DNA of 64,000 nucleotides from Candidatus Dormiibacterota bacterium. Lineage in GTDB: Bacteria; Chloroflexota; Dormibacteria; Aeolococcales; Aeolococcaceae. The notes beneath the pieces are model-generated. The model did not search any database. It saw nothing but the letters and a program-made list of their open reading frames with translations, and had not been told where the DNA came from. The stretch spans positions 60,534-124,533 of the forward strand of contig CAVPXI010000008.1 of assembly GCA_963709585.1 (NCBI GenBank), read 5' to 3'. Below, piece after piece: positions 48,250 through 57,658 of this stretch (position 1 is the first letter of the stretch; each line of letters begins with the position of its first letter). Position numbers and translations under genes: made by a program.

Positions 48250-48895
48250 GCGGGGGCTTGGTCGCGGCCACGGCCGCGGGAATGATGGGCACCGCCGCGA
48301 CGGCGCGCCAGCAGTACCACGCCGCCGTGCTGCGGTACGGCCGGAGGATCTCGCCCAGGAGCATCAGCGCTTTCGGGGTGGGCGGCGCCGCCATCTCGTG
48401 GATGCGCGCCCAGCCGTTGCGGATGCCGAGGTCATCCACCGGCCACACGTCGGGACGGCGGAGCTGGAACAGCAGGAACATCTCGGCGGTCCACGGCCCC
48501 ACGCCGCGCACGGTCACCAGACGCGCGACGATCTCGGCGTCGTCCAGCTCGTCCAGATCGTCCGTCGGCACCGTCCCGTCGACGAACTTGGCGGCGAGAT
48601 CGATGATGGCGGCGAGCTTGTTCGCGGAGAGCCCCGCCGCGCGCATGGTTTGGGGTTTGGCGGCGAGGACCGCTTCCGGCACGACCGGCTCGCCGCCCAG
48701 AGCCGTGACAAGCCGCCCGTGGATGGCCCGCGCCGCGGCGCCGGCGAGCTGCTGAAACACGATTGCGCTGAGCAGGGATTCGAACGCCGAGCCCGTCGGC
48801 GGACGCACGTCCATGGTCACGCTGGTCTCGACCACACGCCGGAAAGCCGGGTCGACCTTGACGATGTGCGCGGCGGCTGCGCTCAGCCTGGTCAT
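48203..48895 (-). CDS. DNA-3-methyladenine glycosylase II (AlkA-like)
   Basis: IVFQQ, GVGPWTAEM, DLG, PYRS.A.WY.W. Confidence 0.9.
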   Translation of the reverse strand: MTRLSAAAAHIVKVDPAFRRVVETSVTMDVRPPTGSAFESLLSAIVFQQLAGAAARAIHGRLVTALGGEPVVPEAVLAAKPQTMRAAGLSANKLAAIIDLAAKFVDGTVPTDDLDELDDAEIVARLVTVRGVGPWTAEMFLLFQLRRPDVWPVDDLGIRNGWARIHEMAAPPTPKALMLLGEILRPYRSTAAWYCWRAVAAVPIIPAAVAATKPPLTARGRRPPSRPKKA

Positions 48896-49410
48896 GCCGG
48901 TGGTGCCTCCACAATGCCGGCCAATCCCTCGATGACGCGTGCTCCGGGAAGTCGCAGCAATCCCGCGGGTGCGAGCCTGATCTTCATCGACCGGCTGCCG
49001 CCCCCGATCACGACGGTGTCCTCGGTCATCACGTGGGCATCGATGTAGAGCGGCAGCTCCTCAGGCAGGCCGAATGGGGTCACGCCACCGATCATCATGC
49101 CGGTGAGGTCGCGGGTCTGATCGGCCGAGGCGAACGACGCCTTGCGCACCCCGAGCAGGTCGGACACGGCGTGGTTGACGTCGAGCCGGCAGGTCGCAAG
49201 CACGATGCACGCGCACGCAACACCCGCCTCCTTGCGAGCGGCAACCACGATGGTGTTCGCGGACTGCCTCGGAGGCACACCGTACCTGGCGCAGAACGCC
49301 GCCGTGTCGGCGAAATCGGGGTCGCACGCGAGTGTCTCGTGTTCGACGCCGAGCGCGGCGAGCCGGTCGCGCACCCTTGCCTCGATGGCGGGCGCCTCGT
49401 CAGTAAGCAT
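48892..49410 (-). CDS. YbaK/EbsC family deacylase
   Basis: TGMMIGGVTPFG, GGGSRS. Confidence 0.88.
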   Translation of the reverse strand: MLTDEAPAIEARVRDRLAALGVEHETLACDPDFADTAAFCARYGVPPRQSANTIVVAARKEAGVACACIVLATCRLDVNHAVSDLLGVRKASFASADQTRDLTGMMIGGVTPFGLPEELPLYIDAHVMTEDTVVIGGGSRSMKIRLAPAGLLRLPGARVIEGLAGIVEAPPA

Positions 49411-49448: not shown

Positions 49449-50591
49449 ATGCGCATCACGGCTCCCACCGAGACGGCGCCCGGCGAGACCCGGGTCGCCC
49501 TGGTTCCACGATCAGCCACACAGTTGGTGTCCACCGGTGCAACGGTAGCGATTCAGGCGGGGGCGGGGATGGCCGCGGGCATCACCGACGCGGCCTACCG
49601 GGAGGTGAGCGCGGAGGTGGTCCCGGACCGGGCGACGCTCCTGGCAGACGCCGACATCGTGGTGGTCGTGCGCCGCCCCGACGCGGCGTTTGTCGGCCGG
49701 CTGAAACGGGGATCGATCCTCGTCGGCGTGCTCGAGCCCGCCGGTGATCCTCCGCTGGTTCGCGCCCTCGTCGACGGTGGCATCACCGCGTTTCGCCTGG
49801 AGGCGATGCCCCGGATCAGCCGTGCCCAGGACATGGACGTGCTCTCCTCGATGGCGACCCTTGCCGGGTATCACGCGGCAGTGATGGCAGCGTTCCGGCT
49901 GCCGCGAATCTTCCCGTTGATGATGACCGCGGCTGGGACGATCACCCCGGCGCGCGCGCTCATCCTCGGCGCGGGGGTCGCCGGCCTGCAGGCGATCGCG
50001 ACCTGCCGGCGTCTCGGCGCGGTGGTCGAGGCCTTTGACGTGCGGCCCGCGGTGCGGGATCAGGTCGAATCCCTCGGCGCTCGCTTTGTCGAAACCGGCG
50101 TCGAATCGGAGATTCAGCAGGACACCGGTGGATACGCGCGCGAGCTCGAGGCCGACGCCCAGGTCCGCCAGCAGCAGGTGCTCGCCGAGCACGTCAAGGA
50201 CTCCGACGTGGTGATCACGACCGCGCAGATCCCCAATCGAAAGGCGCCCGTGCTCGTGACCGCGGACATGGTTGCGTCGATGCGAACCGGTTCGGTGATC
50301 GTCGACCTCGCCGCGCCGGGAGGTGGCAACTGCGAGCTCACGCGCCCGGACGAAGAGGTCAACGCCAACGGTGTGCTCATCCTCGGGCCGACCAACCTTC
50401 CGGCCTCCATCCCCGGGCAGGCAAGCCAGCTGTACTCCCACAATGCCACCCGTTTTCTGCTGCAGCTGCTCAAGGATGGGCAGGTGCATCTCGATTTCGA
50501 GGACGTCGTGATCAGCCAGACCTGCATCACCCACGAGGGCAAGGCCATGGGTGAGCAGATCGAGGCACTCCTGCAGGGAGCGACTGCGTGA
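49449..50591 (+). CDS. pntAA: NAD(P) transhydrogenase alpha subunit part 1
   Basis: ETRVALVP, RISRAQ.MD.LSS, GAGVAGLQA, GGNCE. Confidence 0.93.
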   Translation: MRITAPTETAPGETRVALVPRSATQLVSTGATVAIQAGAGMAAGITDAAYREVSAEVVPDRATLLADADIVVVVRRPDAAFVGRLKRGSILVGVLEPAGDPPLVRALVDGGITAFRLEAMPRISRAQDMDVLSSMATLAGYHAAVMAAFRLPRIFPLMMTAAGTITPARALILGAGVAGLQAIATCRRLGAVVEAFDVRPAVRDQVESLGARFVETGVESEIQQDTGGYARELEADAQVRQQQVLAEHVKDSDVVITTAQIPNRKAPVLVTADMVASMRTGSVIVDLAAPGGGNCELTRPDEEVNANGVLILGPTNLPASIPGQASQLYSHNATRFLLQLLKDGQVHLDFEDVVISQTCITHEGKAMGEQIEALLQGATA

Positions 50592-50926
50592 GCCCTGCGC
50601 AGACGCTCGCACTCGGTGCCTTCATCTTCGCGCTCGCGGTGTTCGTGGGATTCCTGCTCATCTCGAAGGTCCCGACGATGCTGCACACGCCGCTGATGTC
50701 GGGGACGAACTTCATCCACGGCATCGTCCTGGTCGGGGCGATCACCGTCGCTGCCGGCGCCAACGACACGCTCGGGTACATCATCGCCATCGCCGCAGTG
50801 CTGCTCGGCACGCTCAACGTCGTCGGCGGCTGGGTCGTCACCGACCGCATGCTGCAGATGTTCCGGCGCCGACCCGCGGCCGATGCGCGCAAGGCGGAAT
50901 CGCCGCCGCCGACATCGGACCGCTGA
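50588..50926 (+). CDS. pntAB: NAD(P) transhydrogenase alpha subunit part 2
   Basis: LHTPLMSGTN, NVVGG.VTDRML.MF. Confidence 0.93.
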   Translation: MSPAQTLALGAFIFALAVFVGFLLISKVPTMLHTPLMSGTNFIHGIVLVGAITVAAGANDTLGYIIAIAAVLLGTLNVVGGWVVTDRMLQMFRRRPAADARKAESPPPTSDR

Positions 50927-50931
50927 CCACG

Positions 50932-52326
50932 ATGCAGCCGTCCGCGCTAACCACCCTCGGCTACATGCTGACCGCGATCAGCTTCATGTTCGGCATCCAG
51001 CTGCTGCGCTCGCCGGCCACCGCGCGCCAGGGGAATCGCGTGGCGGCGGTGGGCATGTTGCTCGTGCTCGGCATCACCGCCGCGCTCGTGCACAACACCG
51101 GCAACTGGCCGCTGATCATCCCGCCGATCGTCATCGGCGCTGTCATCGGCACGGTATCGGCTCGGCTCGTGCAAATGACCGCGATGCCGCAGATGGTCGC
51201 GCTCTTCAACGGCATGGGCGGCGGCTCCGCAGCGCTCATCGCCGCGCAGGATTTCCGAACCTCGGTCGCCGCCGGGACCGCCCATCCGGACATCACGTGG
51301 GCGATCATGGTGAGCTGCGTGATCGGGTCACTCAGCTTCGCGGGTAGCCTGGTGGCGTTCGCGAAGCTGCAGGAGTTGATGCCCGGCCGGCCACTCACGT
51401 ACCAACTGCAGAGCGCGGTCAACGGTCTGCTCCTGCTGGTGATCCTGGCACTCGGGGTCTACCTGATCGTCGCTGATCAGAACCTGGCGCTCTTCGCGGT
51501 GTACATCGTGCTGTCGCTGGTCCTGGGCGTGCTTTTCGTCGTGCCGATCGGCGGCGCCGACATGCCGGTGATCATCTCGCTGCTCAACTCCTTCACCGGG
51601 CTTGCGGCGGCGAGTACCGGATTCGTGCTGAGCAACGACGTGCTCATCGTCAGCGGCGCGCTGGTCGGTGCGTCGGGAACCATCCTGACCCTGGCGATGA
51701 GCAAGGCGATGAATCGATCGCTCTTCAACGTCCTCTTCAGTGGCTTCGGTTCGAAGGTCGAGGCGGCCGGCAGCGCGGCGGGCGCCGAGGGTGGCACCAT
51801 TCATCCCACCACAGTCGAGGACCTTGCACCGTTGCTGGCGTTCGCACAACTCGTGGTGTTCGTCCCGGGATACGGCATGGCGGTCGCGCGTGCGCAGCAC
51901 GAGGTCAAGGAGCTCGCCGACGAACTCGAGAAGCGTGGCGTCACCGTCGAATACGCGATCCACCCGGTGGCGGGACGGATGCCCGGCCACATGAACGTGC
52001 TGCTCGCCGAGGCCAACGTGCCGTATCCGCAACTCAAGGAGATGGATGCGGTGAACGGCGACTTCCCGCGCACCGACGTGGCGGTGGTCATCGGCGCCAA
52101 CGATGTCGTGAACCCCGCGGCGCGCACCCAGACCAACAGCCCGATCTACGGCATGCCGATCCTCGATGTCGACCAGGCGAAGACCGTCGTGGTTCTCAAG
52201 CGCAGCATGGCGACGGGCTTTGCCGGGGTCGACAACCCGCTCTTCTACAAACCGAACACGCTGATGCTCTTCGGCGACGCGCGCACCTCAGTGGCCGCGC
52301 TGGTCGCCGAGGTCAAGAAGCAGTAG
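50932..52326 (+). CDS. pntB: NAD(P) transhydrogenase beta subunit
   Basis: MPQMVALFNG, GGADMPV, HPVAGRMPGHMNVLLAE. Confidence 0.95.
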   Translation: MQPSALTTLGYMLTAISFMFGIQLLRSPATARQGNRVAAVGMLLVLGITAALVHNTGNWPLIIPPIVIGAVIGTVSARLVQMTAMPQMVALFNGMGGGSAALIAAQDFRTSVAAGTAHPDITWAIMVSCVIGSLSFAGSLVAFAKLQELMPGRPLTYQLQSAVNGLLLLVILALGVYLIVADQNLALFAVYIVLSLVLGVLFVVPIGGADMPVIISLLNSFTGLAAASTGFVLSNDVLIVSGALVGASGTILTLAMSKAMNRSLFNVLFSGFGSKVEAAGSAAGAEGGTIHPTTVEDLAPLLAFAQLVVFVPGYGMAVARAQHEVKELADELEKRGVTVEYAIHPVAGRMPGHMNVLLAEANVPYPQLKEMDAVNGDFPRTDVAVVIGANDVVNPAARTQTNSPIYGMPILDVDQAKTVVVLKRSMATGFAGVDNPLFYKPNTLMLFGDARTSVAALVAEVKKQ

Positions 52327-52717
52327 TGTCCGGGGCCTTGCCGGTGCTTGCGACACTGCGTAAGGCGATCAGCAGGTCCGCGGGAGCGGTGTCCTTCACC
52401 ACGTAGCCGACTGCTCCACTCTTCAGCGCCTCGACCATGCGCTCGTGGCCGCCAAACGACGTCAGCATCATCACCCGCGTGCTCGGTTCGGTCTCGACGA
52501 GCCGTCGCGTGGCCTCGATCCCGCCCATGCCGGGCATCGAGAGGTCCATGAGCACGATGTCCGGATGCAATTCCGCAGCCATCTCGAGCGCCTGCTCGCC
52601 CGAGTCCGCCATCCCGACAACTTCGATGTCGGGCTCGTGTCCGAGGAAGGAGGCAAGCCCCTTGCGGACGACCGGATGGTCGTCGACGATCATGACGCGG
52701 GTCGCTGCAGGGGGCAT
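52313..52717 (-). CDS. stand-alone response regulator receiver (NarL-type REC, no HTH)
   Basis: VDDH, MDLSMP, LTS, GYVVK; 134 aa. Confidence 0.88.
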   Translation of the reverse strand: MPPAATRVMIVDDHPVVRKGLASFLGHEPDIEVVGMADSGEQALEMAAELHPDIVLMDLSMPGMGGIEATRRLVETEPSTRVMMLTSFGGHERMVEALKSGAVGYVVKDTAPADLLIALRSVASTGKAPDTTAS

Positions 52718-52729
52718 CCGTCACCCACT

Positions 52730-54226
52730 CTACTCGATGGGCAGCGTTAGAACGACAAGGGTGCCGCGGCCTCGTTCGGAGTCGATGGTGAGTGTTCCCC
52801 CGACCTCCTCCGCAAGCTCTTCAATCGCCCGCGTGCCGAGGTGCCCCGCCGCTCGCCGGCGCTCGACGTCCTCGCGAGTGAAGCCTACTCCGTCATCCTC
52901 GATACTCAGGATCGCCGAGCCGTCCTCGGTGATCAATTCCACCTTGACGTTCTTTGCCTTCGCATGCGCGGCAACGTTGCGAAGGATCTCGTGCGCCACC
53001 CGGAAGATCAGCGCCGCGCGATCTTCGCGAAGCCGGAGATTGGGTGGCAGGTCGAGTTCGGTGTTGGTGCCCTTGCGCTTCATCTCGCGCAGTACCTCGA
53101 GCAGTGCCGCTTGGAGTCCCTCACGACGTAGCGTCGGCGGAGCCAGTTCGATGATGAGCGTGCGCAGCTCCTTCATCGCTCCGCGGGTTTCAGCCGCGGA
53201 CGTCTCCAGCAAGTCGAGGAGTGCGGCGTGGCCATTGTCAACCACCGGTTGCGACTTGAGTTGCGAGGCCTCAGCGGACAGCGTCAATGCCATCCCAGCA
53301 AGGTTCTGTACCACGCCGTCGTGCAGATCGCGGGCGATCCTTCGCCGCTCCGACTCCGACGCGTCAACCGCTTTCTGCAGCAAGGCTTCTTTTTCCTTCT
53401 GGTCCTTGTTGCGCTGTTCCTCATAGTCGTGCATGCGACGCGCGAAGATGATGAGATACACGTGCAGCATGATCACAGGCGCCAGCAGCGCCATGAACCC
53501 TGCCGTCTGGGCATATCTTTGCATGGTCACGAAGGCGAAGGCGGCGAAGCCATATCCGATGCTGTACGGCAGGACCGCGACGCGCCCTCGCAGGGTCTGT
53601 CTCATCTGTGCACTGGGATCCGACAGACGAATGACCATCGCCACGAGGCCGGAGTTCACCGTGAAGTGGACGAGCCCAGCAGCGAGTCCCGCCACGAGGT
53701 CTAAAGGTATAACTCCCCCAACACCAAGTCCGTGGACCCACTGGAACACGCCCCAGGCAGCGACATTGGCGAGGAAGTAATCCGCAATGTTGAAGCTCGT
53801 CCGGAACCAGCCGTTTCGGGTGCGAAGGGATATGCCGATCGGCTCTGCCAGAGCCCCGATCGCCGCTCCGGCGGGTCCGAATGTGACTGAGAGACCGAGG
53901 TGAATATACGGTGATGGGACCCATGCCACGTTGGCCGCGGGCGTTGCCTTGATCGCGAAGACGGACATCAGGAAGATGGTCGTTCCGGCGATCGCGACGG
54001 TTACGAGGTCCACCGGTACGCGGACCCATAGAACGGCTGCGAGACCCACAATCACGGCGGCAGCGACCGTCGCGGCCACGTAGGTGACGAGACCCGCGGT
54101 GTAATGGACTGGCCCGAGCGCGGGCGTTTGCGGCAGCAGCTCCAGGCGACGGATCGCCGTCACGGCGCTGCGAAGCGGTCGACCCTTCTCAGTCCCTTGT
54201 GTCCGGGGTGCGACGGCATCCTGCAT
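52730..54226 (-). CDS. membrane sensor histidine kinase (HisKA_3)
   Basis: ~7 N-terminal TM helices, ERRRIARDLHD, NVAAHA, DDGVGF, GT. Confidence 0.92.
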   Translation of the reverse strand: MQDAVAPRTQGTEKGRPLRSAVTAIRRLELLPQTPALGPVHYTAGLVTYVAATVAAAVIVGLAAVLWVRVPVDLVTVAIAGTTIFLMSVFAIKATPAANVAWVPSPYIHLGLSVTFGPAGAAIGALAEPIGISLRTRNGWFRTSFNIADYFLANVAAWGVFQWVHGLGVGGVIPLDLVAGLAAGLVHFTVNSGLVAMVIRLSDPSAQMRQTLRGRVAVLPYSIGYGFAAFAFVTMQRYAQTAGFMALLAPVIMLHVYLIIFARRMHDYEEQRNKDQKEKEALLQKAVDASESERRRIARDLHDGVVQNLAGMALTLSAEASQLKSQPVVDNGHAALLDLLETSAAETRGAMKELRTLIIELAPPTLRREGLQAALLEVLREMKRKGTNTELDLPPNLRLREDRAALIFRVAHEILRNVAAHAKAKNVKVELITEDGSAILSIEDDGVGFTREDVERRRAAGHLGTRAIEELAEEVGGTLTIDSERGRGTLVVLTLPIE

Positions 54227-54361
54227 GGGTTGGATCCTATTCCGCGCGCGGCGTTTGGCGCGGTGTATGTGACAGCATTGTCGGAACCGTACGCAGGGAA
54301 ACCCCAATGGTGGCCTGACGTTTGACGCGTTGTATCGGCACTACCGCGTCGCTCGCGTCAG

Positions 54362-54381
54362 TTATCACAACGCGATGATAA
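54362..54381. promoter_or_regulatory. palindrome TTATCA-N8-TGATAA in divergent promoter region
   Basis: Perfect AT-rich inverted repeat between kinase and micro-ORF 1. Confidence 0.4.
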
Positions 54382-54519
54382 AGCGAAGAAATGTGAACGC
54401 GAGATCACGCGCATGGTCTTAAGCCCAGAGAACCTCCAGAGGATTACAGTACGTGCAATACCAGCGCGTCGGCGGTCAGGTCTCACGCTACCCGCAGGCG
54501 CAGATCCGAGGAGGTTCCC

Positions 54520-54555
54520 ATGGCTACATGGGGCGATAACGAAGCCTGGGGGTAG
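54520..54555 (+). CDS. micro-ORF 1, MATWGDNEAWG (11 aa)
   Basis: GAGGAGG RBS 5 nt before ATG; C-terminal AWG shared with micro-ORF 2. Confidence 0.65.
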   Translation: MATWGDNEAWG

Positions 54556-54801
54556 CCCCAGGGTTGCCCGGCACTCACTCTAGAGCGCCGGTGTGACGAT
54601 CCATTGGGTGATTGCGTGACGGGCCGATAACGGGTCGATCGCGTCATCATCACGGAGGGGCCTGTCGATGGCGGGCCGCCGGGTGCGCATGTGCGCGCAT
54701 TCGGCCCCGGTTGGCTGCTGTTCGCGTACGCTTGCGACGCGAGTGAGAACCCCTAAAAGGACGCGACTCTGAGAGCCTCAACGGGAGCGACCACCGCCCC
54801 G

Positions 54802-55987
54802 TTGCGAGCGCCTCGTCGCGCCCTGAGCCCCTCAGTTCGTTTGCTTATCGCCACGGGTACGTCCTCCTACGGCGACTGGCTCACGACGGTGGCACTGATC
54901 GTGCTCCTCTTCCGAGCCACCCAGTCCCCAATCGGCCCTGCCGTGTACATGATCGCCAGGGTGGCCCCGCGGCTGATCGGGCCATTCCCCGGCGGCGCAC
55001 TCGCTGATCGTTATGGGCCGGCCCGCATCGCCGCAGGGTGCGCCGTCGTTCAGGGCCTGCTCACGGCCTCGATCGTCGTGTTCGCGGACAGCCGGATCAT
55101 CTGGCCGATTTTTGTGGCGGTGGCACTCGCTCAGTTCTTCAGCTCGGTAGCACAGCCGTGCTATGGAGCGCTGGTCCCGCGTGTGACCGACGCCGCGGGT
55201 CTCGGTCGCGTGCAGGGCGCCTATGCCGCACTGAACAGTTCCAGCCTGCTGGTCTCCCCCGCACTGGGTGCGCTCGTGCTCCCGTTCACCGCGCCGGAGG
55301 TACTCGTCGCCATCGACGCGGCAACGTTTTTCGTGGCGGCCGCGCTGCTCGCCACGCTCGCGGGCGTGGGCGATGACACGTCTGCGCCTACCGGGTCCAG
55401 CCGGGGCATGTCGGCGGGGGTGCCCGTCGTGCTTCACGATCCGATGCTGCGATTCCTTGCCGTTGCGTACCTTTCGAATTGGGCTGCGGTGACCGCACTG
55501 CAGGCCGTGCTCGTGGTGGCCGCGGCCCAGCGGTTCGGTCATGACACCGCGGTGGGCTGGCTCTACGCGGCGATCGGAGCCGGGTCATTGCTCGGAACGC
55601 TCCCGGTCATACGCAAGACTCCCGAGCGAGTCGAGTCAGAAGCCGATCATCGCCTTCACGGCCCTCGAACTCGCGCCCCTGGCTGCGTTTGTGTTCGTCA
55701 ACAACATCGTGCTGGCCGTGGCCCTGTTATTCCTCAGCTCCGTCGGCGCGACCCTGTACCAGACACGAGGCGCAGTCGGTCTGCAGCAGCGGGTACCTCG
55801 TGAGCTGCTCGGGCGGACCACCGCAGTTGTGCGTTTCGCCGGATACCTCGGCATGTTGTTCGGGGCGATCGCCGCCGTTTCGCTGGTTCAATCGTTCGGC
55901 TGGGAGTCCACCGTCCTCATCGTCTGCGCCGCCGGGGCGACGCTGCTCTTCATCACCGCGGTCAGCGAGAGCAGCCAGTCCCACTGA
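54802..55987 (+). CDS. MFS transporter (MFS_3/DHA3-like), frameshift near 55635
   Basis: SSYGDWLTTVAL, GGALADRY, QQRVP.ELLGR. Confidence 0.85.
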
Positions 55988-56170
55988 CGGCGATCCCTTG
56001 TCGGGATGCCGGAAACATCCGCAAAGACTTGTGCAGATGTGGACAACGCTTGTTAACTCAGCCCAGGCGGCGCGAACGCAGCGACCGTGAGCGCCGCACC
56101 CTGTCGAAGCCAACCTTGCCCGACCGGTAGGACGAGGACCTTGGCGCCGGCGGTATCCATGGAGGCGGAA

Positions 56171-56197
56171 ATGGCGGACGGCGTAGCCTGGGGCTGA
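56171..56197 (+). CDS. micro-ORF 2, MADGVAWG (8 aa; in-frame ATG at 56159 would give MEAEMADGVAWG)
   Basis: GGAGG RBS 5 nt before ATG; C-terminal AWG shared with micro-ORF 1. Confidence 0.65.
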   Translation: MADGVAWG

Positions 56198-56250
56198 TTC
56201 CCCAACCCTTGACCCTCGGGGACGCCCGAGGTTTCTGAAATCCGTTGGGT

Positions 56251-56292
56251 GCGACGCCGTGGGTCTCTGCCCGCGGCGTCGCGCTTTGTTTT
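56251..56292 (+). terminator. intrinsic terminator between micro-ORF 2 and second MFS gene
   Basis: GCGACGCCGTGGG-loop-CCCGCGGCGTCGC followed by TTTGTTTT. Confidence 0.65.
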
Positions 56293-56316
56293 CCGCCACC
56301 CGATCCAGGAGTGGAC

Positions 56317-57658
56317 ATGCCGATCGACGTGGCACGCTTCTTCCCGCAGGCAGCAGGGACGCTGCCCAGGGCCGATCGATCCGCGCGCCTGCTGGTGGCA
56401 GCCGGGATCTCGACGTACGGGGACTGGCTCACCGTGGTCGCGCTCGGGGTCCTGCTGTTCGACCTGACGCACCGTCCGGAAGCGCCCGCCCTGTACATCC
56501 TTGCGAGATTCGCGCCGAGGGTGTTCGGGCCGACGCTCGGTGGGTCGCTTGCTGATCGCTTCGGGCCAAGCCGGGTCGCCGGGTGGTCCGCGCTTGGACT
56601 GTGCGCCCTGACGGCCGCCATCGTGGTCCTCGCCAATACCGGGACGGTATGGGCGATCCTCGTGGCAGTGGCCTGCGCGGGCTTCCTGGGCTCCGTCGCA
56701 CAGCCGGGCTACAGCGCATGTATCCCTCGAGTGACCCCTCCGCCCCGGCTCCTGCGCGTCAACGCGCTCTACAGCGGACTCTTCGAGTCGAGCGTGCTGG
56801 TTGCCCCGGTCATCGGGGCGGTCGTCCTGCCCTTCGTGCGGCCGCAACTCCTGGTCGCGGCTGACGCCGCGTCGTTCGGCGTCGCCGGCATCCTCGTGCT
56901 TTCGCTGCGCGTCGGTCCGGTGGCGGCGGGAGCCTGGCGGCCGCGCGATCGACCCCGCGCCGCCGCCGTCGTGGCCCGCGATCCGATGCTGCGGGCCCTG
57001 GCCGCCTCGTTCTTCTGCAGCGCGGCCGCCATCACCGCGCTCCAGGCGGTACTGGTCGTTGCCGCGGCCGATCGCTTCGGGCAGGCCACCGATGTTGGGT
57101 GGCTCTACGCGGCCGTCGGCGCCGGTGGGGTCGCCGGAAGCGTCCTGCTCCTGCGCTGGACTTCGCGCGCCATCAGCGCCCGGGGCATCGCGATCGGCTT
57201 CCTGCTCGAGGTCGCACCCATCGGGCTTTTCGCCGTGGTCGGCGGACTGATTCCGGCGCTCGGCCTGCTGGTCGTCAGCACCGTGGCCGCGGCGCTCTAC
57301 CAGAACTCGGGGTCAGACGGCGCTCCAGCAGCGTGTTCCGGCCGAGTTGCTCGGCAGGGTGAATGGCGTGATGCGCCTGCTCCTCTACGCGGGCATGCTG
57401 GTTGGAGCGATCGTCGCGGTGGTGCTGGTCGAGCTGATCGGCTGGTCAGCGCTCGTGCTCGGCACGGCCGCCGTCTCGGTCGTGGCATTCGCGCCGGCAG
57501 CGCTCACCTATCGCCGGCAACCACGGCGCCCCAACGAGGTCACCCTCGCCGGGACACCAATGGTGCTGGTTTCAGCTCAGACCGCGACCGCCTCGCGGAC
57601 TTCCTTCTCGATCGGCAGGCCGACCGAGTTGCCCCACTCGCTCCACGACCCGTCGTAG
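56317..57658 (+). CDS. MFS transporter paralog (MFS_3/DHA3-like), frameshift near 57310
   Basis: STYGDWLTVVAL, GGSLADRF; clearly similar to the 54802 gene; AGGAG RBS. Confidence 0.85.

Follow-up and report, generated by a model that had tools for sequence, protein, structure and literature searches.

Tandem micro-ORF leaders upstream of two MFS transporter genes in Candidatus Dormibacterota: conserved RNA structure and a candidate ribosome-controlled terminator

INTRODUCTION

What purpose is served by a micro-open reading frame (micro-ORF) of 8-11 codons and a structured RNA leader placed before a transporter gene is the question raised by a locus in a 64,000-nucleotide (nt) stretch of DNA from a Candidatus Dormiibacterota bacterium (GenBank assembly GCA_963709585.1, contig CAVPXI010000008.1, positions 60,534 to 124,533; referred to below as the window, in whose coordinates positions are given). 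The arrangement occurs here twice, in the plus-strand order micro-ORF 1, leader 1, MFS1, promoter-like block, micro-ORF 2, leader 2, and MFS2, the two MFS genes encoding transporters of the major facilitator superfamily; upstream, on the minus strand, a histidine kinase and a NarL-type receiver (Pfam and NCBIfam assignments) are divergent from both units. A preliminary description of the sequence had listed four elements that follow both micro-ORFs in the same order and had proposed a switch, in which a CCCA segment behind the stop codon pairs either with the Trp-Gly codons or with the TGGG of a shared motif; as an alternative, it named a terminator or stabilizer keeping peptide mRNA in excess over transporter mRNA.

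Candidatus Dormibacterota is a widespread soil phylum and, to our knowledge, has no cultured members; a full-text literature search combining the phylum name with "small RNA" found no paper. Here, comparative genomics, covariation analysis, and contigs from RNA libraries were used to examine the two leaders. The leader unit is real, conserved, undescribed, and outside Rfam, and its features are tentatively read, with slightly less than even confidence, as ribosome-controlled termination: a translated micro-ORF in a structured leader, followed by a terminator-type hairpin before an MFS gene of DHA3/MFS_3-like type.

RESULTS

Two conserved micro-ORFs with an invariant tryptophan

Micro-ORF 1 (54520-54555, plus strand) encodes MATWGDNEAWG, ends in TAG, and is preceded by the Shine-Dalgarno sequence GAGGAGG (54508-54514, plus strand). 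Each of the 29 genus sequences extending over the region has it, with the consensus M-A-[T/S/N]-W-G-D-x-x-x-W, and its last Trp is followed by Gly in 11 sequences, by Thr in 1, and by no residue in 17. In the genus alignment, Ala2 is encoded by GCT, GCA, GCC, and GCG, and Asp6 by both of its codons; this synonymous variation therefore points to selection on the translated product. Micro-ORF 2 (56171-56197, plus strand), the Shine-Dalgarno-proximal frame of eight codons, encodes MADGVAWG and ends in TGA. It is found in 28 of 28 species as a frame of 8-9 codons of the form M-A/T-x-G-x-x-W-G/A/S with an invariant Trp, ending in WG (22 species), WGG (2), WA (3), or WS (1) and always in TGA, while an in-frame ATG further upstream is found in only 19 of the 28. 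GGAGG-type sites lie 5-8 nt before both micro-ORFs, and both leaders thus carry the conserved short ORF with a ribosome-binding site that is expected of a leader-peptide attenuator.

The ending AWG, common to the two micro-ORFs of this genome, is seen in 1 of 29 sequences of micro-ORF 1 and in 7 of 28 of micro-ORF 2. It is therefore an accident of this genome, the invariant residue of both micro-ORFs being Trp; the unit that they have in common is (G/A)-D-x-x-x-W(-G). When the same genome was scanned for ORFs of 5-16 codons that follow a Shine-Dalgarno sequence and end in W or W[GAST], 126 of 3264 were retrieved, with only the two known micro-ORFs fitting the family. A scan for Trp-rich ORFs of 20-100 amino acids (aa) returned 72, of which the 25 with the highest Trp content look like off-frame artifacts.

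An intrinsic terminator in leader 2 and a complementary ribosome-binding-site block

The long hairpin that the preliminary description had placed after the motif is present in both leaders, and in leader 2 it is a true intrinsic terminator, located ~30 nt before the ribosome-binding site of MFS2. This terminator, T (56247-56293, plus strand), consists of a stem at 56247-56286 followed by TGTTTTC; the terminator scan assigns it 18 pairs, 12 of them GC, and 99.0% of alignment cells are paired in 28 species. Since T lies so close to the MFS2 Shine-Dalgarno sequence that no room is left for a promoter, MFS2 would need read-through. Changes within T are mostly one-sided and fall on the 3' arm, whereas the 5' arm and the motif (~25 nt) are nearly invariant, as would be expected if the 5' strand serves two structures.

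Upstream of T, the stop codon of micro-ORF 2 is enclosed by hairpin S2 (56189-56204, plus strand), in which TGGG​G (56189-56193) faces CCCCA (56200-56204) across CTGATT, with 73.6-92.9% of cells paired by column. It is followed by hairpin P1 (56214-56231, plus strand; CCTCGGG GACG CCCGAGG; 94.4% paired), which shows covariation at alignment columns 96:104 (AU/GC/CG) and 91:109 (CG/UA). Taken together, S2, P1, and T are paired in 93.1% of cells across the 28 species, with six pairs changed on both sides; none of 500 shuffles reaches the observed value, and slid partners give 39-50%. Leader 2 also folds better than shuffled sequences (z -3.7).

Conserved to the same degree is a ribosome-binding-site block of 28 nt, GGCGCCGGCGGTATCCATGGAGGCGGAA (56143-56170, plus strand), which is nearly invariant in the 28 species and contains both box A (GYGYCGGCGG, 56144-56153, plus strand) and the Shine-Dalgarno sequence GGAGG of micro-ORF 2 (56161-56165, plus strand). 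Box A is complementary, G-U pairs included, to CCGTTGG(G)TGC, which is the motif together with the lowest bases of the terminator, and this pairing is possible in 97.5% of cells, compared to 33-53% for slid controls. In minimum-free-energy folds of transcripts cut before the terminator 3' arm, at least 8 of the ~20 bases of the motif and 5' arm pair with the block in 20 of 28 species, the mean being 11.4 nt versus 6.9 nt with the block shuffled. Registers A and B of this pairing, in which ATCCATGG would face CCGTGGGT or TGGGTGC, do not hold in the divergent clade and were rejected, and a long-range CCATGG:CCGT pairing proposed by RNAalifold was not used alone, being absorbed into the hypothesis on the ribosome-binding-site block.

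Leader 1 carries a longer set of hairpins

Leader 1 contains four further hairpins. H0, the 5' hairpin (GCGTCGGCGG ... CCGCAGGCGC; 54466-54501, plus strand), is paired in 95.8% of cells and has a CG/GC swap at columns 35:56 (15 versus 9 sequences). P1 (54568-54591, plus strand; 91.4% paired) has three of its five pairs changed on both sides, while the letters of its loop, CACTCTAG here and CACTGTAG in most relatives, are invariant. The loop form CACTSTAG (54576-54583) is invariant in the genus; other genera differ, one example being ACAAAGUAA. P2 (54601-54658, plus strand) is a long irregular hairpin of 20 pairs in two helices, paired in 97.6% and 96.4% of cells, in which TTGGGTRAT pairs with ATYRTCACGG and columns 178:216 alternate between AU, GU, and GC; the letters GATAACGGGTCGATCGCGTCAT within it are invariant. 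It is followed by an invariant Shine-Dalgarno-like GGAGGGG (54654-54660) and not by a U-tract. No conserved start codon follows this GGAGGGG within the genus. P4 (CCGGGTGCGC ... GCGCATTCGG; 54679-54704, plus strand) is paired in 98.2% of cells with one-sided changes only; it lacks a canonical U-tract and was missed by the terminator scan, but is likely the 3'-end or terminator hairpin of a short leader-1 RNA.

In 28 species, H0, P1, P2, and P4 together are paired in 96.6% of cells, with nine pairs (46 cells) changed on both sides, compared to 35-47% paired in slid controls, and leader 1 folds better than its shuffles (z -4.2). Further candidates were discarded. The pairing of UGGGGC (codons 4-5 of micro-ORF 1) with GCYCC after P4, suggested by RNAalifold, shows zero two-sided changes, and slid partners reach 71-75%. 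The complementarity of ACUGUA in the P1 loop to the upstream TACAGT (54445-54450) is without covariation, and species with TACACT keep ACUGUA; a -10 box is the better reading of TACAGT. Clade structure dominated a naive covariation scan of all columns against all; its columns 79:171 (UA 13, AU 13) have unpaired neighbor columns.

The shared motif and the hairpins at the stop codons

All four elements of the preliminary description can be read directly from the sequence. The stop codon of micro-ORF 1 lies in the loop of S1 (54545-54562, plus strand; CCTGGGG GTAG CCCCAGG), a perfect hairpin of seven pairs whose 5' arm includes the last Trp-Gly codons and which is weak across species; S2 is its weaker twin. 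TTGMCC then leads into the hairpins of unlike sequence described above (TTGCCC 54564-54569 into 54568-54591; TTGACC 56209-56214 into 56214-56231), and the motif follows 43 nt after TAG in leader 1 (ATCCATTGGGTG; 54599-54610, plus strand) and 42 nt after TGA in leader 2 (ATCCGTTGGGTG; 56240-56251, plus strand). The 12-mer ATCCRTTGGGTG occurs exactly twice in the 3.52-Mb assembly, namely in the two leaders, and at one mismatch or fewer there are three sites in the window where 0.37 would be expected. Across species, the exact 12-mer survives in 9 of 28 leader-2 sequences but, among leader-1 sequences, in that of this genome alone; leader 2 of all 28 species has the form A[TC]CCGTT(T)GG(G)[TC]G, and the core common to both leaders is approximately YCNTTGG. 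The long hairpins of the two leaders differ, yet each has as its 5' foot the 3' half of the motif, which in leader 1 contributes TTGGGTGAT as the 5' strand of P2.

The hairpins at the stop codons are less distinctive. The terminal UGG can pair with the segment behind the stop codon in 26 of 28 species for leader 1 and 27 of 28 for leader 2, compared to 77% and 73% of shuffled tails, and the energies correspond to z values of -0.6 and -1.17, respectively. Within the genus, this hairpin is therefore not clearly better than base composition predicts. A pairwise MAFFT alignment of the two leaders was uninformative, and a covariance model of leader 2 (R1), run with filters off, found only small hairpin fragments in leader 1 (at most 4.4 bits). 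The ordered architecture after each micro-ORF is conserved, as the preliminary description held, without forming a recognizable single RNA family. Covariation, which it had named as a check, was found for several hairpins in both leaders and not for the CCCA/TGGG pairing. A search of 53800-57000 against Rfam 15 (cmscan, E of at most 10) gave no known family: all six matches are far below gathering scores, one of them, a flavivirus element on the minus strand (54745-54835; 20.5 versus 46.5 bits), overlapping the region and the remainder belonging to microRNA, small nucleolar RNA, or small RNA models.

Leader 1 in RNA libraries

Contigs of four soil metatranscriptome runs, from four studies, were aligned to 54350-56450. 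Each run contains one short contig confined to leader 1: 54472-54765, 54464-54710, and 54478-54690 without any difference, and 54478-54713 (X18) with one. Their 5' ends lie 14-28 nt after the conserved TACAGT (54445-54450, plus strand; TACAGT or TACACT in relatives), a -10-like sequence with a putative promoter role, and three of the 3' ends (54690, 54710, and 54713) fall inside P4 or directly behind it. A relative's version is also present in one run, with a loose end that reads the end of a micro-ORF 1. The MFS1 coding sequence, leader 2, and MFS2 are uncovered in all four runs, which is not evidence of absence or of attenuation. The contigs hint, weakly, at a discrete leader-1 RNA of ~210-290 nt.

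Distribution within and beyond the genus

Of 36 other genomes of the genus, 31 have the tandem MFS pair, the five without a match having a completeness of 63-86%; none of 24 sister-family genomes has it. The units are ancient tandem paralogues whose conservation extends across a single genus. In addition, the stretch is present in DNA runs from soil, sediment, peat, and rhizosphere metagenomes. Within the source genome, R1 and a second covariance model built on the core of leader 1 (R2) each match only their own leader above noise. R1 had no match in 150 other genomes of the phylum, a sample without other members of the genus. R2 matched 8 of 9 sampled genus genomes, 3 of 24 from other genera of the family, and 0 of 117 from four other families of the class.

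Among the three matches outside the genus, G244 and G229 carry a micro-ORF of the same type. The third, G301, has a single unit that scores E = 7.5e-6 against the model although its RNA sequence is largely different; its order is kinase, divergently MASWGDNYGWG, stop hairpin, P1, a P2-like hairpin, a hairpin followed by GUUUGUGU, and MFS. Across genera the peptide is thus kept while the RNA sequence, including the P1 loop, differs. Metagenome contigs were also scanned for M-A-x-W-G-D with nothing imposed after it: of 117 matches, 47 were short ORFs, and 38 of these have 10-11 codons with Trp at position 10. A relative of MFS1 starts 218-282 nt downstream in 22 of the 38 loci, and 15 loci are too short to tell. 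One metagenome locus, L196, carries tandem micro-ORFs, MATWGDSAGWG and MVDSAGWG, with identical ends (DSAGWG), each followed by hairpins and a U-run, and no MFS gene lies between them. In this locus (701-1100) the kinase is followed by the micro-ORF of type 1, ~270 nt later by that of type 2, and then by GGCGCCGATTCGAATTGAATCCGGCGCC and TTTTTT; an unrelated-looking ORF starts ~270 nt after the second micro-ORF, at the edge of the locus.

The transporter genes and a third paralogue

MFS1 (54769-55987, plus strand; MFS_1/DHA3-like) and MFS2 (56317-57658, plus strand; MFS_1/MFS_3, DHA3-like, with ATG at 56317) are ~52% identical at the protein level. Both match MFS_1 of Pfam (E 1.5e-14 and 7.2e-17), and MFS2 also matches MFS_3 above its cut-off (6e-8); the best NCBIfam model, TIGR00900, gives E values of 1e-31 and 1e-27, below its curated cut-off, and weak matches to the Mef (3e-8 to 3e-4), Tap, EntS, and Tet(V) models reach no equivalog. 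On these profile matches, the two proteins are nearest to the DHA3/MFS_3 group, at the family level only. In 28 of 29 genus sequences, CTGA follows a GGAGG-type site in frame at a distance of 6-8 nt, and MFS1 apparently starts at the conserved CTG at 54769-54771. The same CTG arrangement is seen in genus g113 (L124), and in several species no ATG, GTG, or TTG can be reached before the conserved YGDW region without passing the CTG.

In the assembly, the frames of MFS1 and MFS2 are broken near 55634 and 57304, respectively, each gene having one A that the closest relative (91% identical at the nucleotide level over 3.8 kb) lacks, and the response regulator gene discussed below is short. Orthologues of both MFS genes in other genomes are intact, with open frames of 400-490 aa. 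The frame breaks and the short regulator could be assembly indel errors or real decay.

A third transporter gene, MFS3 (417 aa, 41% identical to MFS2), lies on contig C7 of the source genome (L084, minus strand 1498-245), beside a fragment of a Mutator-family transposase, and was found solely in this genome among 42 genus genomes searched. It is preceded by an ORF of 58 aa (L084, minus strand 1744-1568) with 7 Trp and 8 His residues and repeated acidic units that end in Trp, which has one homologue (58% identical) in the protein collection and ends in UGG-UAG-ACCA within a hairpin. Between this ORF and MFS3 are a hairpin and a C/U-rich run, and a CUCCC:GGGAG hairpin covers the MFS3 ribosome-binding site.

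Genomic setting

The histidine kinase (52730-54307, minus strand) has a multi-pass N-terminus followed by HisKA_3 and HATPase_c domains, and the NarL-type receiver (52313-52717, minus strand) is only 134 aa long in the assembly, with a stop directly after the receiver domain. Of 31 relatives' loci searched, 28 have micro-ORF 1, and in 24 of these the N-terminus of the kinase precedes it; the kinase N-terminus lies upstream of the unit in another genus as well. A scan of 14 neighboring ORFs revealed no peptidase, modification enzyme, or dedicated type of peptide exporter, nor an MccB-type (ThiF/E1-like) adenylyltransferase or a ComQ-like prenyltransferase.

Before leader 2, a promoter-like TTGTGC-N18-TTAACT (56029-56058, plus strand) was recognized from alignments within a genus-conserved block, having been missed by a consensus scan; the start of this block resembles the block upstream of leader 1. 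The similar blocks read GCGAAGAAATGTGAAC (54390-54406) before leader 1 and GCAAAGACTTGTGCAG (56021-56037) before leader 2, and the form in the genus is GCRAAGARWTGTG. This block is a candidate operator shared by the two units, for example for the neighboring NarL-type regulator. The neighboring genes upstream of the kinase and receiver encode a free-standing protein with an aminoacyl-tRNA editing domain (48892-49410, minus strand) and a PntA/PntB transhydrogenase (49449-52326, plus strand). The listed PntB frame (50551-52326) has 591 aa, and since its N-terminal 135 aa match nothing, the true start is probably further in.

DISCUSSION

Ribosome-controlled termination, the explanation tentatively preferred here, was chosen because it is the simplest use of a micro-ORF, a strong terminator, and two invariant complementary blocks. 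From these observed features we infer an alternative pairing, a role of the ribosome, a signal, and read-through itself. The transporter would be produced by read-through only. The hinge of leader 2, made up of the motif and the first bases of the terminator 5' arm, would have two alternative partners: pairing with the terminator 3' arm would lead to termination and a short micro-ORF RNA, while pairing with the ribosome-binding-site block (box A GYGYCGGCGG ... CCATGGAGG) would prevent termination and permit read-through into MFS2. A ribosome loading on the micro-ORF would cover the block and free the foot of the terminator, favoring termination; if loading stops, either by failed initiation or by a ribosome held at the Trp(-Gly)-stop end and occluding the start codon, the block would become free and read-through would rise. 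Most transcripts would end as short micro-ORF RNA. Leader 1 would be the older and longer version, composed of H0, micro-ORF, P1, P2, and P4. The purpose could be either induction of the pump, with read-through upon a stall at W-G-stop or upon failed loading, much as at the mef(E) leader (PMC4335068), or an excess of peptide mRNA over that of the exporter.

Several observations weigh against this mechanism. The pairing of box A with the motif and terminator foot shows no two-sided change at all, covariation being silent because both strands are invariant, and it overlaps only the lowest five pairs of the terminator. By a rough estimate, a 10-nt complement that tolerates G-U pairs is not rare in a GC-rich leader of ~100 nt. 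The duplex of the block with the motif and 5' arm has energies from -15.7 to -25.2 kcal/mol and z values from +1.3 to -2.1 relative to shuffled blocks, only about one standard deviation better than these; in the folds of cut transcripts, 8 of 28 species fall below the cut-off, and the divergent clade is mostly without the pairing. In leader 1, where the motif sits in P2, no coupling equivalent to that of leader 2 was found: ~125 nt separate the stop codon of micro-ORF 1 from the candidate terminator P4, which has no U-tract, and a pairing of the box A-like 5' arm of H0 with CCGCCGG at the foot of P4, considered as a counterpart, breaks in species with the GTGGG variant of H0. Finally, the leader-1 contigs cannot prove RNA ends, strand, or level.

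Much of the same evidence can be read with the peptides at the center. An explanation without any switch, which we regard as unlikely yet worth serious consideration, takes the leaders as plain terminators or stabilizers: the micro-ORFs would be real genes whose mRNA is protected in excess, the MFS proteins would come from constitutive leak-through, and the peptides would be exported by them and perhaps sensed by the neighboring two-component system. This would account for M-A-x-W-G-D ... W in all 29 genus sequences in spite of synonymous codon changes, for the same type of peptide in G301 despite its diverged leader RNA, for the Trp at position 10 of 38 metagenome micro-ORFs, which the search pattern did not impose, for the (G/A)-D-x-x-x-W-G unit common to both micro-ORFs and the tandem micro-ORFs of L196, for the Trp-unit ORF of 58 aa before the third MFS paralogue, and for the synteny of the histidine kinase. 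It agrees with the lack of a robust antiterminator among the pairings examined, and the short leader-1 contigs in four RNA libraries, a weak hint, fit the terminator or stabilizer that the preliminary description had offered as its alternative. However, plain termination leaves unexplained why the ribosome-binding-site block and the terminator 5' strand are invariant while the 3' strand drifts, and why leader 1 has ~150 nt of strongly conserved structure. The scanned neighborhood holds no peptidase, modification enzyme, or dedicated type of exporter, the 58-aa ORF would be too large a substrate for an MFS protein unless cut, and we know of no tested precedent for MFS export of unprocessed peptides of 8-11 residues. 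Coupling the two ideas, it is possible, if rather doubtful, that the micro-ORFs are themselves the products: leaderless, unprocessed (G/A/S)-D-x-x-x-W(-G) peptides of 8-11 residues, exported by their own MFS protein and read by the HisKA_3 kinase and NarL regulator, with the RNA serving as a ribosome-coupled terminator that keeps peptide mRNA far above exporter mRNA and the 58-aa ORF as a multi-unit version. Conservation of the peptide across genera while the RNA drifts, the D-x-x-x-W-G unit, the 58-aa ORF, L196, and the syntenic kinase pull in this direction; the invariant RNA blocks and the lack of a maturation gene nearby pull against it.

Two other explanations put the signal elsewhere and are both considered improbable. 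In the three-way switch of the preliminary description, the CCCA behind the stop codon would pair with the Trp-Gly codons or with the TGGG of the motif, and the supply of Trp-tRNA would set the terminator. The terminal Trp codon is indeed invariant in both micro-ORFs, the C-run behind the stop codon can pair with UGG(G) in 26 of 28 and 27 of 28 species, and even the third unit has UGG-stop-CCA in a hairpin; but the stop hairpin barely beats shuffled tails. The second pairing, CCCRRC:GUUGG, is possible in 83.6% of cells in leader 2, with A-U alternating with G-U (14 versus 14 at one pair), yet without a single two-sided change, and it would make a poor antiterminator, since it overlaps only the lowest two to three pairs of a 15-pair terminator and cannot block that stem. 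In leader 1, moreover, the motif is the 5' strand of the covariation-supported P2. A ribosome halted at the Trp codon or at the stop codon 3-6 nt further on would cover the same bases, so that little distinguishes the two positions, and the conservation of M-A-x-W-G-D, with all four Ala codons in use, exceeds what a simple sensor of Trp codons needs. Both the terminator or stabilizer and a competition between ribosome-binding site and terminator fit better than the switch as it was written. The remaining explanation, in which a structured RNA acts through a ligand or protein partner of its own or in trans, similar to a riboswitch or small RNA and with the micro-ORF secondary, also has little probability. 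It would give a reason for the ~250 nt of covariation-supported hairpins in leader 1, which beat shuffles (z -4.2), for the invariant CACTGTAG loop, GATAACGGGTCGATCGCGTCAT in P2, and GGAGGGG, and for the stand-alone contigs in the RNA libraries, again as a weak hint. It is disfavored by the absence of Rfam matches at E of at most 10 that approach gathering scores and by the conservation across genera of the peptide but not of the RNA sequence or the P1 loop; furthermore, the only match above noise in its own genome is the leader itself, which always adjoins an MFS gene if the sequence extends far enough to show it (22 of the 38 loci from metagenomes, 15 being too short).

With these units, Candidatus Dormibacterota would gain its first described cis-regulatory leader or micro-peptide. 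The material is unusually well suited to experiments: each of the two paralogues has 28-29 orthologues, further copies have diverged in other genera or lie on 38 metagenome contigs, leader 2 has a textbook terminator, leader-1 contigs are present in RNA libraries from soil, and the invariant complementary blocks, box A and the motif, make a sharp, testable prediction. If the peptide reading is true, the micro-ORFs would represent a new and very small type of Trp peptide, exported by an MFS protein dedicated to it and sensed by a two-component system; on the sensor reading, M-A-x-W-G-D...W-stop would be a new arrest or leader peptide.

Among known systems, trpL-type attenuators and TnaC combine a leader ORF, regulatory Trp codons near its end within a hairpin, and a downstream terminator. 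The units described here likewise have Trp near the end of the micro-ORF, a hairpin over the Trp codons, and, in leader 2, a downstream terminator. In contrast, their downstream genes encode transporters, micro-ORF 2 has one Trp codon, the 1:2/2:3/3:4 chain of trpL is unsupported, and the conserved non-Trp part of M-A-x-W-G-D is unexpected in a codon sensor; the W/D spacing of TnaC also differs from that of the micro-ORFs. In ComQXPA, a small gene for a Trp-containing peptide lies beside a membrane HisKA_3 kinase and a NarL-type regulator. The Trp micro-ORFs likewise adjoin a HisKA_3 kinase and a NarL-type regulator, to which they might signal, but there is no ComQ-like prenyltransferase and no precursor part, and an MFS gene takes the place of the maturation gene.

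The mcc operon, too, includes an MFS gene, that of the exporter mccC. Termination induced by the ribosome is reported behind the seven codons of mccA, where sequences further upstream serve as antiterminator (Zukher et al. 2014, PMC4231749). The mccA-mccB arrangement is similar in having a micro-ORF of a few codons with its own Shine-Dalgarno sequence and then, as in leader 2, an intrinsic terminator, which upstream RNA weakens and a ribosome on the micro-ORF restores, and in yielding a short micro-ORF transcript along with a minor read-through transcript (PMC4231749); for the present leaders, the ribosome dependence and the two transcripts are what the proposed mechanism would predict. Microcin C differs in that its heptapeptide ends in Asn and is accompanied by MccB, whereas the micro-ORFs here encode 8-11 residues ending in W, WG, WA, or WS, without an MccB-type or other maturation gene among the ORFs scanned; the present leaders also possess P1 as an additional hairpin, leader 1 has another ~150 nt of structure, and the phylum is a different one. 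For mef(E), which encodes a related MFS pump, attenuation through the leader peptide Mef(E)L is described by Chancey et al. (2015, PMC4335068). The pump is of the same broad subfamily, TIGR00900 being the best model here, but the peptides are unrelated, MTASMRLR for Mef(E)L compared to MA-x-WGD...W and MADGVAWG (PMC4335068). Here, moreover, two tandem units stand next to a two-component system. The leader unit of Candidatus Dormibacterota is thus of a known kind, a micro-ORF followed by a terminator leader, with a peptide family, an architecture, and a taxon of its own.

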